This document shows, piece by piece, positions 57,683 through 64,000 of a stretch of DNA of 64,000 bases. The notes beneath the pieces are model-generated. The model had not been told where the DNA came from. It saw only the letters and a program-made list of their open reading frames with translations, and ran no database searches. The stretch lies in sequence record PZ445428.1, one strand, 5' to 3'. Both the position numbers and the translations under genes were made by a program. Numbering within the stretch: position 1 is the stretch's first letter; every line of letters starts with the position of its first letter. The DNA is from a phage.

Positions 57683-58828
57683 ATGACAACCTTACTAAAT
57701 CTGAACTGGAATCCTGATTCTGAAGAGCTATTTCTGGGTGATGCTTTGGGAGTAGCAGACTATGTTCGTGTTGCTCATCCAGAGCTAGAACGACTTGCAC
57801 TATTGCAGAGGAGCCAGTTTTGGACTGAAACAGAAATCAGTCTAGAAAGTGACAAAAAGCAATGGCCTAATCTCCCAAGAGAAATACAAGAAATCACTCT
57901 GCTGAATTTAGCTTGGCAGGTTCAAACAGATTCATTTATTAGTAGAGCACCAGAAGCCGCAGTACTTCCTTTGGTTAGTCGCCCTGAGTTAGAGGGAATG
58001 CTAAAGCAGTGGAGCTACTTCGAAGATCTGCACAGCCGTGCTTATAGCAACATTATCCGTAACGTTCTGACTGATCCAGCAGAATTTATCGATTCTGTTA
58101 CAAAAAACCAAGAAGCATTCGCACGTATCGCTGATTCCGTAGAACTGTTCGATGAACTGTATCAATTAGGTCAGTATTTCATCGCAGTACGTGACCATCG
58201 TGGTGACAATACTTATCCAGAAACCGAGTTTCCTGAAGTTAAACGTGAAACTCAGGCTAAACTGTTAGATGCCTATTTTGCAATCTATGGTCTGGAAGCA
58301 ATGCAGTTCTACGCATCTTTTGCTTGTACCTTTGCTCTAGCAGAAAACGATATTCTGCAAGGTATTGCTAAGAACCTGCAATTGATTGCTAAAGATGAAG
58401 CTCTGCATACTCAAATGTCCAAAGCAGTTATCCAGATCATGTTCCAGCAGTTCGACCAAGATCTGATTGATGAAGCTCTGGCTAAAGCACCAGCGCAGCT
58501 TTTGAAAACTCTGCAAACTGAAATCAACTGGGGCCACTTTATCTTTAAAGGCCGTAGTCTGATTGGTCTGAACGCAGAACTTCTGGAAGAATACCTTTAC
58601 TTTGTAGGACGTAACGCATTTATGCATATTGGCGTAGAATGGCCGAGCAATCTGCCAGTAATTACTAAGAACCCAATTCCGTGGATCATGAACTGGCTGG
58701 ATACTACCTCTTTACAACCTGCTCCACAGGAAATCCAGATTGGTGCAGCTTATCGTGTAGGTCAGGTAACTGAGACTTCAACTGATACCTTGAAAGACCT
58801 GGGTAATGAATTTGAGGGCATGTTCTAA
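57683..58828 (+). CDS. nrdB: Ribonucleotide reductase small subunit (class I beta)
   Basis: 381 aa; di-iron ligand-like ExxH segments (EDLHSRAYS, DEALHTQ); adjacent to nrdA. Confidence 0.85.
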   Translation: MTTLLNLNWNPDSEELFLGDALGVADYVRVAHPELERLALLQRSQFWTETEISLESDKKQWPNLPREIQEITLLNLAWQVQTDSFISRAPEAAVLPLVSRPELEGMLKQWSYFEDLHSRAYSNIIRNVLTDPAEFIDSVTKNQEAFARIADSVELFDELYQLGQYFIAVRDHRGDNTYPETEFPEVKRETQAKLLDAYFAIYGLEAMQFYASFACTFALAENDILQGIAKNLQLIAKDEALHTQMSKAVIQIMFQQFDQDLIDEALAKAPAQLLKTLQTEINWGHFIFKGRSLIGLNAELLEEYLYFVGRNAFMHIGVEWPSNLPVITKNPIPWIMNWLDTTSLQPAPQEIQIGAAYRVGQVTETSTDTLKDLGNEFEGMF

Positions 58829-59364
58829 TGATAGCAGCAATCTATGCAACTGGGCCGAAAGGGGAGTTCGGCCTCAATGGTAGACTCCCTTGGGGTTCCT
58901 TCAAAGAGGAACTAGATATATTTTATGCCACACTAGATTCTCTAGCACCTGATAACATCATCATTGGTGCAGGTACGTGGTTGGGCTTTCCTGAAACGCT
59001 TCAAAAGCGGATTTTAGGGGATTCTGATCTGTTTATTTATGCCAATGCCCACAAGCCTTTACCAGAAACTATTGGGTGCCCTACTCGAATTACTAGCATT
59101 GGGTATACTTTGCCTGAATTCTTTAAGGAAGAAGTAACAGTAGTATTGGGCGGAGCAGCTTTGCTCCTAGAGATGTATGCTAAAAATCACTTAGACATGG
59201 CATATGTTTCGACAATCGCATCAGCAACACCATTATCAGCTGATGTACACTTGCATCCACATATTACTATGACTAACTCGATGGCAACCAGAATGGAGTA
59301 TGCATCAGGGGAGAATGCGGATAAAACCCTTTCCTTCCTACAGGAGCTGGTAACGTTTAAATGA
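58828..59364 (+). CDS. Dihydrofolate reductase
   Basis: 178 aa; [23 protein letters not shown] matches DHFR N-terminal substrate-binding signature; immediately upstream of thyA. Confidence 0.7.
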
Positions 59365-60215
59365 AACAATATATTGAAACAGGAAAACGTATTCTCGAAG
59401 AAGGTCAGTGGGTAACTAATCCTAGAACAGGTGTACGTTGCCTCACTATTATTGATGCAGATTTCACTTTTAATGTGGGGGCTAATGAATTTCCTCTTAT
59501 TACTACTCGTAAGGCATTTGCAAAACAAGCAATAATGGAAATGATTGGCTATCTACGTGGTTATGACTCCGCAGCACAATTCCGCGATATCGGGGTTAAT
59601 ACGTGGAACGCTAATGCAAATGAAAACCTTGCATGGTTGGATAATCCATATCGTAAAGGCGAGGATGATATGGGACGGGTCTATGGTGTTCAAGGACGTC
59701 ATTGGACAAACTCTGATGGTCTTATGTTTGACCAATTATCCAAGATCTATCGTAACCTGAAAAGAGGGATTGATGATCGTGGGGAAATTCTAACTTTCTG
59801 GAATCCGGGGGAGTTCTCAAAGGGCTGCTTGCGTCCTTGTATGCACACCCATCAGTTCTCTATTCTAGGTGATACCTTATATCTGAATTCATTTCAGAGG
59901 TCTAATGACTTCCTGCTAGGCCAGGTATTTAACATGGTTCAATGCTACGCTTTGCTTGCAATCATGGCTCAAATCACTGGATATAAACCTGGGATCGCTC
60001 GCCAAAAGATCGTGAATCTTCACATCTATGAGAATCAGTATGAAGTTCTAATGGAACACAAACAGTTTGATCGTGAACCTTTTGAGCCGCCTCATCTGAT
60101 TATTAATCCAGATATTCGAACTTTGGATGATGTATTAACTTGGGTAAGTAAGGATGATTTTACTGTTCGTGGCTATGAACATCATCCTGCTATTGCATAT
60201 CCATTTACGGTGTAA
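59361..60215 (+). CDS. thyA: Thymidylate synthase
   Basis: 284 aa; [17 protein letters not shown], catalytic-Cys region [25 protein letters not shown]. Confidence 0.9.
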
Positions 60216-60218
60216 CAT

Positions 60219-60572
60219 ATGTTAATTATACTATTATTTGTAATATTCTTTCTAAAACATTTTATGGCCGATTATCCTCTCCAAACACCATATATGCTAA
60301 GAAAGACTCATAAAATAGGGTGGAAACTTCCATTATTAACCCATTCTCTAGTACATGCTGTATTAACATTTGCAATTCTAATTCTATTCACATCACTAGG
60401 GATGGCTATAGCTTTAGCTATTATGGAATTAATTTTACACTTTATTATAGATTATTGGAAAGCACAACGCTGTAAGTACGCTATAAGCGATGCTAAGTTT
60501 TGGATAGCTTTAGGATTTGATCAGTTACTGCACTATCTGACATACGCCTTAATAATCTTGATTATAATCTAA
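60219..60572 (+). CDS. Small integral membrane protein (hypothetical)
   Basis: 117 aa with about three hydrophobic helices (LIILLFVIFFL, AVLTFAILILFTSLGMAIALAIM, ALIILIII). Confidence 0.4.
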   Translation: MLIILLFVIFFLKHFMADYPLQTPYMLRKTHKIGWKLPLLTHSLVHAVLTFAILILFTSLGMAIALAIMELILHFIIDYWKAQRCKYAISDAKFWIALGFDQLLHYLTYALIILIII

Positions 60573-60577
60573 CTCAA

Positions 60578-60603
60578 ATAGCCCTTCGGGGCTATTATAT
60601 TTA
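60578..60603 (+). terminator. Terminator-like hairpin after membrane protein gene
   Basis: ATAGCCC-TTCG-GGGCTAT hairpin followed by T-rich TATATTT. Confidence 0.5.
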
Positions 60604-60611
60604 AATTTCAT

Positions 60612-60640
60612 TTGCTTACTGAGTGAAATTCAAATATAAT
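60612..60640 (+). promoter_or_regulatory. Sigma70-type promoter
   Basis: TTGCTT-17 nt-TATAAT then GGAG RBS and ATG 60665. Confidence 0.55.
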
Positions 60641-60664
60641 ATATTTTATAAATTGGAGACACCT

Positions 60665-60919
60665 ATGGGACTCTTTAAAAAGAAAGTTTATTTAACACAA
60701 AGTCAAGAACGCAGGTTCTTAACTCTGTCTCAGTATTATCACTTACCTTTCGATCATTTCGTAGAACGGGCGATAGAACAATTCCTAGAAAAGGAACTAA
60801 GGGCAATAAGACCCGAACCGCCAAGAGTACCCAATGATGCACAGAGAGGCCACCCACGTATTCCTCCTATGCCGCCAATTCCTCAGGCGACTAGGGTCAT
60901 TGTAGAGGGCGAAAAATAA
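60665..60919 (+). CDS. Hypothetical protein, Pro-rich C-terminus
   Basis: ATG 60665 after GGAG (track start 60623 lies inside the promoter). Confidence 0.3.
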   Translation: MGLFKKKVYLTQSQERRFLTLSQYYHLPFDHFVERAIEQFLEKELRAIRPEPPRVPNDAQRGHPRIPPMPPIPQATRVIVEGEK

Positions 60920-61188
60920 TGTCTATTCTTTTATCTGCTTTAGAAGCAAAACAAAATACTATTGCTGTTATTAAACAGGAAGTAATTGACCTAGAATCAC
61001 TTATTGCCGTAGAGATTGATAAAGCAATCAAAGAAAAAGAATTTAACTGCCATATTCAGGGATTAACTGAATATTCAGAAAACGCCAGAAACAGCGTTAT
61101 GCAACGACTTACTAAACTAGGCTATATCGTAGAGGCTAAGTATGAGCAGCGTGAAGGTTTTTGGCTTGAAATTGACTGGAGCAAATAA
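60919..61188 (+). CDS. Hypothetical protein
   Basis: 89-aa ORF, start overlaps upstream stop. Confidence 0.3.
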   Translation: MSILLSALEAKQNTIAVIKQEVIDLESLIAVEIDKAIKEKEFNCHIQGLTEYSENARNSVMQRLTKLGYIVEAKYEQREGFWLEIDWSK

Positions 61189-61664
61189 TGTCGGTTTTCC
61201 ACATATATACAGATGGTGCATGTAAAGGTAATCCTGGGTTAGGCGCTTGGGGTTTTGTAGTATATGATCCTACTGATGAACGTTTAGGTTCTAAATCCGG
61301 TTTTAATCCAAAAACCACAAATAATGAGATGGAACTCACAGCTATTGTTGAAGTTCTACGTTGGGCTACTAAAAATGATAAGCGCCCAGCTATGATCTAC
61401 ACTGACTCTACATACTGTAAAAATGGCATGGAAAGCTGGGTTTTCTCCTGGCAGAAAAAAGGCTGGAAGAAAGCCGATGGAGAAGCCCCTCTTAACCTAG
61501 AGTTGTGGAAAGAAGCATTCTCATTACTACAAAAATACATAAACTTCCACGACACCACACCGACCTTCGTTAAAGTCAAGGGGCACTCAGGTGGTCCTAG
61601 AAATGACGAAGTAGACGCTCTATGTAATACAGTTATAACAGAGCAAGAGTTAGCTGAGATGTAA
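61188..61664 (+). CDS. Ribonuclease H
   Basis: HIYTDGACKGNPG, TNNEMELTAIVE, IYTDSTYC, VKGHSGGPRNDEVDALCN (RNase HI DEDD catalytic pattern). Confidence 0.8.
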   Translation: MSVFHIYTDGACKGNPGLGAWGFVVYDPTDERLGSKSGFNPKTTNNEMELTAIVEVLRWATKNDKRPAMIYTDSTYCKNGMESWVFSWQKKGWKKADGEAPLNLELWKEAFSLLQKYINFHDTTPTFVKVKGHSGGPRNDEVDALCNTVITEQELAEM

Positions 61665-61684
61665 TAAATAAATTAAAAATTCAG

Positions 61685-61713
61685 TTGCTTAAAGCCCTCG
61701 ATTTTAGTATAAT
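61685..61713 (+). promoter_or_regulatory. Sigma70-type promoter
   Basis: TTGCTT-17 nt-TATAAT; 9-bp inverted repeat AAAGCCCTC/GAGGGCTTT brackets the -10 and the RBS. Confidence 0.5.
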
Positions 61714-61740
61714 ATTCATATTGAAAGTGAGGAGGGCTTT

Positions 61741-62019
61741 ATGCGAATTTATAACTCAAATTCATTAGGTTTCAAACCATTGAGAAAACGTGCACAATCT
61801 CCGCGTCAGATCAGAAAGGCTAATATCGGAGAACCAGAAACGCGTCTTCCGCCACCTCCTGAACAACGTTTAGTTTATCTAGACGAGGAATTGGCAGAAC
61901 GTGAACGTAAAGCTCAAGAAGAAATTGAGCGTAAGAAGATGTGTACTGCTCCGGCATATAATAAAGGTGCATATCAATACGTTTCTGATGAAGAACAAGC
62001 TAAGATGGTCGGCAGATAA
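61741..62019 (+). CDS. Hypothetical protein
   Basis: 92-aa ORF with GAGGAGG RBS and own promoter. Confidence 0.3.
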   Translation: MRIYNSNSLGFKPLRKRAQSPRQIRKANIGEPETRLPPPPEQRLVYLDEELAERERKAQEEIERKKMCTAPAYNKGAYQYVSDEEQAKMVGR

Positions 62020-62035
62020 TTTTTAAAAAATTCAT

Positions 62036-62064
62036 TTGCTAAACGCTTCAAAATCTCGTATAAT
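62036..62064 (+). promoter_or_regulatory. Sigma70-type promoter for basic protein gene
   Basis: TTGCTA-17 nt-TATAAT. Confidence 0.55.
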
Positions 62065-62102
62065 ATACTTCATAAATTGATCAACAAAAAGGAAAATAAA
62101 TA

Positions 62103-62618
62103 ATGGCTAAGCAGAAAAACGCAAAAACTCAGGCAGCTCCAGCAGTTAAGACTTTCCCGCAGACCGAAGCTAATCGTAAGGCTCGTCTGGAACGTCATCT
62201 GCGTAAGCATCCTGAAGATGTTCAGGCTGCACAAGCTCTGGGTCGTCCGGCTCCTGTTCGTCAGAAACCGAAGGCTAAAAACTCAACCCGAGCTGTAGCT
62301 AAACAGGTTGTGTTCATCAAAGGTGAAGGCCACAAGTCTGTACCTGTAACCCTGGGCTTCAACGGTGGAGCTGAAATGTTCTCCCGTAAGGACATGTCCC
62401 CGAAAGAGTACGAAAAAGCAGTTAATCAGAAACGTAAGCCAATGGCCGACGTATTCCGTGAAACTCGCGGCCAGTTCGGCTCTGTTAAACCGAATATCTT
62501 CGGTGTAGAGTATAGCCGTGACAACGTTCGCGCTCTGTGCTACGGCATTGGCATCAAGTTCACTGGTGCTTCTGATCGTAAATCCGCTAAACCGGCTCGT
62601 AAGCGTAAAGCGAAGTAA
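62103..62618 (+). CDS. Highly basic protein, codon-optimised (putative abundant nucleic-acid-binding protein)
   Basis: 171 aa, Lys/Arg-rich termini (…KPARKRKAK), codon usage like capsid gene; strong promoter upstream, hairpin downstream. Confidence 0.4.
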   Translation: MAKQKNAKTQAAPAVKTFPQTEANRKARLERHLRKHPEDVQAAQALGRPAPVRQKPKAKNSTRAVAKQVVFIKGEGHKSVPVTLGFNGGAEMFSRKDMSPKEYEKAVNQKRKPMADVFRETRGQFGSVKPNIFGVEYSRDNVRALCYGIGIKFTGASDRKSAKPARKRKAK

Positions 62619-63193: not shown

Positions 63194-63409
63194 ATGCGTA
63201 ACTTCGTTGCAAAGAATGATTTTAACCGTGCTAGCACTCATAAGTCTGCTAGAGATTATACTCGTCTTTCTAAACATGAGCTTCTAGAAGAAATCATGGA
63301 AGAAAACTGGGATGTTAATGAAAATGGAACAGACCTGTTTGAAGAAGAAGAAATTCCCTTGAAAGACCCCAAGCAGTGGGAGTCTAACAAAGAGACCACT
63401 CTTTGTTAG
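63194..63409 (+). CDS. Hypothetical acidic protein
   Basis: 71-aa ORF after GGAGAA RBS. Confidence 0.3.
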   Translation: MRNFVAKNDFNRASTHKSARDYTRLSKHELLEEIMEENWDVNENGTDLFEEEEIPLKDPKQWESNKETTLC

Positions 63410-63433
63410 TTTTCTACACAATAAGGATAAGTT

Positions 63434-64000
63434 ATGAAAGTAAAACCATTTGGTATGCTGGACATTGAATCCCTAGGGACTCCAGATAACTGTGGAACAA
63501 CCCATATCGCAATGCCGTCTTTCGCTTTCGTAGCCATGCACGGAATTGATACAGACCCTGACCTGATCTTCGTAACCCTAGACGTTCAAGATCAACTTAA
63601 TGCAGGTGCTAAAGTTACTGCATCTACATTTGCTTTCTGGATGGATCAGGCTAAAAATAGCCCATCTGCCCTCCACATTATGGAAGCTTTACAAAGCAAA
63701 GGTGCAAAACTCATTGCATTCCGTGATGGTAAACACCAGTGCACTAATGAACTAGGTTCAAACTATGGAGCTTACCTCATGGCTAAGAACATGATGGAAA
63801 TCTTCCTAGACGAAAATGCACTGTACTACGGCAATGGCCCAGAATTTGATATGACTATCTACTCTGCTAATACGTTCCATGCTGGAACTAATGAAGCAGT
63901 CGTTCCATGGAAATTCTGGAATCTGGGTAACGTTCGTTCTTTCCGTAATCTGTGGATGCAAGCAGGTTATAATTACAAAGAACTGGAAGCCGAAGGTGCT
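63434..64000 (+). CDS. DnaQ-like 3'-5' exonuclease candidate, 3' end cut by the window
   Basis: Open frame from ATG 63434 (AAGGATAA RBS) to window end with no stop; FGMLDIESLG resembles the exonuclease D-x-E motif; not in the ORF track because it is unterminated. Confidence 0.3.
   Translation, partial: MKVKPFGMLDIESLGTPDNCGTTHIAMPSFAFVAMHGIDTDPDLIFVTLDVQDQLNAGAKVTASTFAFWMDQAKNSPSALHIMEALQSKGAKLIAFRDGKHQCTNELGSNYGAYLMAKNMMEIFLDENALYYGNGPEFDMTIYSANTFHAGTNEAVVPWKFWNLGNVRSFRNLWMQAGYNYKELEAEGA

Follow-up and report, generated by a model that had tools for sequence, protein, structure and literature searches.

In the DEDDh (DnaQ-like) 3'-5' exonucleases, four carboxylates bind two divalent cations and a histidine activates water. 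Within the Rv2179c-like or DexA-like family of these enzymes, the founding member of the Pfam family PF16473 (Rv2179c-like 3'-5' exoribonuclease domain) is Rv2179c of Mycobacterium tuberculosis (PDB 4HEC), which is described as an exoribonuclease, while the only characterised phage member is exonuclease A (DexA; PDB 8KEL) of phage T4. As a 3'-5' exonuclease, DexA favors single-stranded DNA; it is dimeric or tetrameric, with Trp152 of one subunit reaching into the active site of the neighboring subunit, and it has a part in the scavenging of host DNA or in intron homing (PMC12153337). For the T5-like phages, our literature search found no published work or biochemical data on the T5 protein T5.087 or on bas27_0073, the gene described below, and the literature on Rv2179c mentions phage only incidentally.

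Results

An open frame at the window end is an intact phage gene

The window, i.e., the whole stretch of phage DNA that was analysed (64,000 nucleotides, one strand of record PZ445428.1), ends inside a coding frame. Positions 63434 to 64000 of the plus strand form 189 stop-free codons, the translation of which begins MKVKPFGMLDIESLG. A first-pass annotation of the sequence had pointed to this frame as one that starts at an ATG with a Shine-Dalgarno sequence, runs without a stop to position 64000, and is missing from the ORF track. All of this is confirmed, and the ORF list lacks the frame because it omits ORFs running off the source. The two features are as follows.

63434..64000, plus strand: exonuclease gene, codons 1 to 189 of 233 (open frame; identity to MZ501108.1; PF16473; PHROG 255; 87% identity to T5.087)
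63423..63427, plus strand: Shine-Dalgarno sequence AAGGA, 6 nt 5' of the ATG at 63434, read from the sequence

The stretch AAGGATAAGTTATG around the Shine-Dalgarno sequence is common to phages T5, S124, IrisVonRoten, AZ23, and AKFV33. With the base composition of the window, the probability of a stop is 0.061 per codon, and 189 open codons would arise by chance with a probability of ∼6e-6. Scored against the window's own codon usage, the frame reaches -3.85 log P per codon versus -4.62 and -4.97 for the two other frames, a value that equals the mean of the 42 long ORFs of the window (-3.88 ± 0.11), and its ENC of 39.5 lies inside the range of 31.7 to 58.9 found among those ORFs. The gene uses the normal codons of the phage and is a normal gene of this genome, and the earlier description of its codons as highly biased was overstated. 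Two reverse-strand ORFs, at 63406-63537 (43 aa) and 63806-63961 (51 aa), were rejected as chance frames inside the conserved coding region.

The last 6567 nt of the window are identical to the genome of Escherichia phage TrudiGerster (Bas27 of the BASEL collection; MZ501108.1), a T5-like Epseptimavirus of the Demerecviridae that also gave a 100% match in a translated search of a phage collection. Positions in MZ501108.1 equal window positions plus 480. In that record, the part inside the window is the first 81% of bas27_0073, a full CDS of 233 aa (63914-64615) labelled "putative metallopeptidase," and the remaining 44 codons and the TAA correspond to window-equivalent positions 64001-64135. 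Downstream extension, which had been suggested as a check of the frame, reveals no frameshift or early stop, the frame continuing to the TAA at window-equivalent 64133-64135. The length of 233 aa is also that of T5.087, homologues in general are 224 to 237 aa long, and the C-termini align.

The sole point in favor of a pseudogene, or of a chance open frame that is broken just past the window, is that the frame is unterminated inside the window. This explanation has practically no chance of being correct, given that the identical public record contains an intact 233-aa CDS that ends where its homologues end, that such an open frame would so rarely arise by chance, and that more than 560 phage genomes have kept the gene. 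As far as can be read from the sequence, bas27_0073 is an intact early gene and the ortholog of T5.087. It is already catalogued in a published phage genome and belongs to a known enzyme family, and RefSeq names its T5 ortholog an exonuclease.

Genomic context and distribution

The exonuclease gene closes an early cluster of nucleotide-metabolism and replication genes (window 57683-62618, plus strand). The genes upstream of it include the following.

57683-58828, plus strand: nrdB
58828-59364, plus strand: DHFR gene
59361-60215, plus strand: thymidylate synthase gene
60219-60572, plus strand: small membrane-like ORF
61188-61664, plus strand: RNase H gene
62103-62618, plus strand: DUF7022 gene (Pfam E 3e-78)
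63194..63409, plus strand: DUF7230 gene bas27_0072, 71 aa, homolog of T5.088 (Pfam PF23876, E 3e-6)

Two small ORFs lie between the DUF7022 and DUF7230 genes. The order DUF7022-DUF7230-exonuclease is kept in T5 (T5.089, T5.088, and T5.087) and in metagenomic T5-like contigs, and the DUF7022 gene was syntenic with the exonuclease gene in every T5-like locus examined.

Searches of phage records returned 560 homologues with the fragment inside the window as the query and 643 with the full protein. Nearly all of them come from T5-like phages (Demerecviridae) infecting Salmonella, Escherichia, Klebsiella, Yersinia, Erwinia, Pectobacterium, and Serratia, and more distant relatives are found in jumbo phages and others. 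A profile search run exhaustively against 1.84 billion representatives gave 12 clusters at an E value of ≤1e-30, 37 at ≤1e-10, and 1045 at ≤1e-3. As delimited by these searches, the proteins are a small, tight T5-like subfamily within the large Rv2179c/DexA family.

A DEDDh nuclease encoded by a phage might also act in counter-defence, by destroying cyclic or linear oligonucleotide signals, retron msDNA, or guide RNAs. We consider such a role very unlikely for this gene, which is core-like and sits syntenically in a replication and nucleotide-metabolism cluster across the Demerecviridae rather than in a variable accessory island. The exonuclease had no match in PADLOC, and our literature search found no link of the gene to defence.

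Elsewhere in MZ501108.1, outside the window, we observed an unannotated tRNA-like element at 68005-68078 on the plus strand (L001 10092-10165). It is called both by Rfam (36.2 bits, with a cut-off of 29) and by ARAGORN, as a "tRNA-Ser" with the anticodon ACT at an unusual position. The element lies opposite the hypothetical CDS bas27_0082 and ∼550 nt upstream of the annotated tRNA-Arg. The T5 annotation designates the region beside tRNA-Arg as a stable "RNAX."

A hairpin and a DUF7230 gene precede the exonuclease gene

A terminator scan located one element at the junction of the DUF7230 and exonuclease genes.

63384..63413, plus strand: perfect 11-bp hairpin CTAACAAAGAG-ACCA-CTCTTTGTTAG followed by TTTT

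The hairpin itself (63384-63409) shares bases with the stop codon of the DUF7230 gene, and 24 nt separate its end from the exonuclease ATG. Its fold energy is -21.2 kcal/mol (z, -4.5), a value that none of 200 shuffled sequences reached. Conservation of the hairpin extends across T5-like phages, its Epseptimavirus and Tequintavirus versions differing by two compensatory pair changes, and Pectobacterium phage My1 carries a different 9-bp hairpin with a T-run in the same place. The AKFV33 record lists the hairpin as a TransTerm terminator, whereas the T5 and TrudiGerster records are without such an annotation. Its sequence and conservation make it a likely intrinsic terminator or attenuator, which would set the amount of transcription reading into the exonuclease gene. 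Since the scan showed no promoter-like site between the hairpin and the ATG, the exonuclease gene is probably transcribed by read-through. Rfam gave no RNA family in or beside the exonuclease gene.

In Klebsiella Sugarlandvirus phages, DUF7230 and the exonuclease are joined in one protein, with DUF7230 N-terminal and in frame. The fusion is found in a 334-aa CDS of phiKp_27, in the proteins P0015 and P0018, and in three independent syntenic metagenome contigs, with fusion loci at L011 128-1132 and L005 6001-7005. The profile of PHROG 255 also spans the DUF7230 ORF. T5, Epseptimavirus, and My1-type phages encode the two separately, with a hairpin between the genes. A read-through or frameshift joining the DUF7230 ORF to the exonuclease was considered for the present genome and rejected: the two share the same frame, but TAG, TAA, and TAA intervene.

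The fusion suggests that DUF7230 and the exonuclease may work together. That the DUF7230 protein is dedicated to the exonuclease, as its partner or its regulator, goes a step further, and we regard it as a speculative and rather unlikely proposal. If it were true, T5-like phages would carry a so far undescribed two-part nuclease module. The small subunit and transcriptional read-through would then determine the target of this module (DNA ends, RNA, or a host factor) and its stoichiometry, and its role might not be that of T4 DexA. In the predicted structure of the P0018 fusion, the N-terminal 83 residues are modelled at a pLDDT below 50 (residues 1-25 and 44-83), with a weak helix at residues 27-42. 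PADLOC holds no defence-system family that matches the DUF7230 ORF.

Family, catalytic motifs, and predicted structure

The profile search proposed by the first-pass annotation bears out the exonuclease homology. Pfam PF16473 matches the fragment with 34.8 bits and the full protein with 34.1 bits, both above the curated gathering threshold of 27 bits, and PHROG 255 "exonuclease" matches at an E value of 9e-43. A precomputed PF16473 match is present in 25 of 28 homologues. T4 DexA itself belongs to PF16473 (E 2.4e-22), and the T5-like family profile aligns to DexA with an hhalign probability of 82% (E 1e-5). No family for the exonuclease was found in NCBIfam. Three conserved motifs lie inside the window.

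63455..63478, plus strand: Exo motif I, M-L-D-I-E-S-L-G (aa 8-15), with the invariant D10 (63461-63463) and E12 (63467-63469)
63827..63862, plus strand: Exo motif II, Y-G-N-G-P-E-F-D-M-T-I-Y (aa 132-143), with D139 at 63848-63850
63905..63937, plus strand: P-W-K-F-W-N-L-G-N-V-R (aa 158-168), with P158, W162, and R168 invariant; shared with T4 DexA

In an alignment of 24 homologues reaching down to 36% identity, Asp10, Glu12, Asp139, His211, and Asp216 are invariant, and the invariant residues of motif II are Gly133, Asn134, Gly135, Phe138, and Asp139. The suggestion that FGMLDIESLG represents motif I of a DEDD exonuclease thus receives support, both from the invariance of Asp10 and Glu12 and from a MAFFT alignment in which Asp10, Glu12, and Asp139 fall on Asp7, Glu9, and Asp119 of DexA. 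Motif III, K-H211-D-P-A-F-D216-A-L (H-x4-D), lies outside the window, in the part of the protein comprising aa 190-233, for which the identical public record was used; across the family the motif has the form K-H-D-P-x-F-D-A-L. By alignment, the five invariant residues are those of the DEDDh pattern. The T5-like family and DexA further share the motif P-x-K-F-W-N-x2-[DN]-[IV]-R, which reads P-C-K-F-W-N-Q-R-D-I-R in DexA.

The AlphaFold2 model of the protein (pLDDT, 90.1; pTM, 0.90) has the RNase H-like α/β fold. Foldseek searches against the predicted viral structures of BFVD returned phage exonucleases, one DexA among them. In the structural comparison, DexA was the best match, and scores for the others were 13.5 for ERI1/3'hExo, 12.8 for REXO2, 12.7 for both Cap18 and RNase T, 12.3 for DNA polymerase III epsilon, and 11.5 for Rv2179c (4hec). 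As queries in sequence searches of the PDB, the single protein and the 24-sequence profile retrieved only designed armadillo repeats and PCNA at E values of 6.5e-4 to 1.5, which we set aside as chance matches; no stretch was individually significant save one that was marginal.

Gene intactness, family membership, conservation of the catalytic residues, and fit to the fold are established here. By analogy with its relatives, bas27_0073 would very probably encode an active DEDDh (DnaQ-like) 3'-5' exonuclease of the Rv2179c-like/DexA-like family. Judged by homology to DEDDh enzymes of solved structure, Asp10, Glu12, Asp139, and Asp216 are predicted to hold two divalent metal ions and His211 to be the general base activating the attacking water, with the enzyme then freeing 5'-mononucleotides singly from the free 3' end of a single-stranded nucleic acid.

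Origin of the metallopeptidase label

Most T5-like GenBank records present the protein as a metallopeptidase, i.e., as a zinc peptidase: the first 25 records listed comprise 14 with this label, 4 with exonuclease, 5 with hypothetical protein, and 2 without annotation. The T5 RefSeq note for T5.087 gives a match to InterPro IPR000834, the entry for peptidase M14 (carboxypeptidase A). The corresponding stretch of the protein is presumably the following one, which fits the zinc-carboxypeptidase signature-2 pattern.

63878-63910, plus strand: HAGTNEAVVPW (aa 149-159), HAGTNEEIVPW in T5

That the protein is in fact a zinc metallopeptidase is hardly credible. No peptidase family was matched in Pfam at E values up to 1 or in NCBIfam, HExxH and carboxypeptidase signature 1 are absent, and all fold matches are to nucleases. 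Of 24 homologues, only 15 have His149 and only 9 fit the signature-2 pattern, and we take the match as due to chance because His149 is not conserved. RefSeq now names T5.087 "exonuclease," while the AKFV33 record still cites T5 YP_006915.1 as a "putative metallopeptidase." The label is probably a chance match of a short pattern in the 2005 annotation that was spread by similarity. The practical value of these results is an annotation fix, as the mislabelled T5-like records include phages of phage-therapy and biocontrol studies.

Discussion

Substrate and role of the predicted exonuclease

If bas27_0073 is a DEDDh exonuclease, it could act on DNA or on RNA, and we lean towards DNA as its main substrate. 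DexA, a DNA exonuclease, gives the best match in structure, no other phage enzyme of the family has been characterised, and the KFWN motif is shared specifically with DexA. The same fold and chemistry could also serve an enzyme acting on RNA, an exoribonuclease or nanoRNase comparable to Rv2179c, oligoribonuclease/REXO2, or RNase T. Such an enzyme would degrade short RNAs, for instance mRNA decay products or the primer fragments that the neighboring RNase H releases, and the resulting NMPs could supply the phage ribonucleotide reductase. The naming of the Pfam family for an exoribonuclease, the similarity to REXO2 and RNase T, and the presence of RNase H and ribonucleotide reductase genes in the neighborhood are in favor of RNA. 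No sequence feature discriminates 2'-OH recognition. Weighed against the likeness to DexA, we hold an RNA substrate to be a tenable but less probable option.

The tryptophan of the KFWN motif, which DexA also has, points to a possible homodimer whose subunits contribute to each other's active sites. By analogy, the protein is most likely a 3'-5' exonuclease of single-stranded DNA or oligonucleotides that acts as a dimer. In the early phase of infection, such an enzyme might, in the manner of T4 DexA, shorten 3' ends or remove fragments while RNase H, ribonucleotide reductase, DHFR, and thymidylate synthase are at work. T5 degrades host DNA by pre-early functions and is not known to reuse the host nucleotides, which weakens the case for a scavenging role in the style of DexA.

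Comparison with known enzymes

The identity of the T5-like protein to T4 DexA is only ∼16 to 20%. Of the two DexA residues of 5hmC recognition, Trp152 aligns with the invariant Trp162, while Asp169 belongs to an unaligned region and has no clear equivalent. T5-like proteins differ from DexA in an extra β-hairpin at approximately aa 91-107 and in a longer helical segment before motif III. DexA discriminates 5hmC-containing DNA and undergoes a temperature-driven switch between dimer and tetramer (PMC12153337). Neither property has an obvious counterpart in the T5-like protein. For 5hmC discrimination, this is in keeping with the nature of T5 DNA, which is not known to be modified.

Two points of residue numbering in DexA were observed along the way. 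T4 DexA (dexA, L004 8225-8908, minus strand) contains two overlapping H-x4-D patterns, His186...Asp191 and His190...Asp195; His211 and Asp216 of the T5-like protein align on His190 and Asp195 (H-D-x-A-x-D-x-L), and the published labels are His186 and Asp191 (PMC12153337). A figure legend of the same paper gives "E12" where the DexA sequence has Glu9. This may be a matter of numbering and leaves the conclusion unaffected.

Rv2179c is shorter than the phage protein, with a chain of 155 residues. By comparison, insertions are present in the phage protein, its C-terminal helical region is longer, and its Pfam match covers only positions 4 to 150 of the 177 in the profile. The other DEDDh enzymes compared (ERI1/3'hExo, REXO2/oligoribonuclease, RNase T, DNA polymerase III epsilon, TREX1, and Exo X) are 9 to 14% identical to the phage protein, belong to different Pfam families (among them RNase_T, PF00929, which the phage protein does not match), and have different cellular roles.

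The closest counterpart is T5.087 (YP_006915.1; NC_005859 44449-45150, minus strand), which is 87% identical to bas27_0073 over all 233 aa without a gap, the two proteins differing by point substitutions only. Its neighbors are also the same, with DUF7022 (T5.089) and DUF7230 (T5.088) on one side and T5.086 and T5.085 on the other, and the upstream hairpin and Shine-Dalgarno sequence are likewise present in T5, where the stem differs by the two compensatory pairs.
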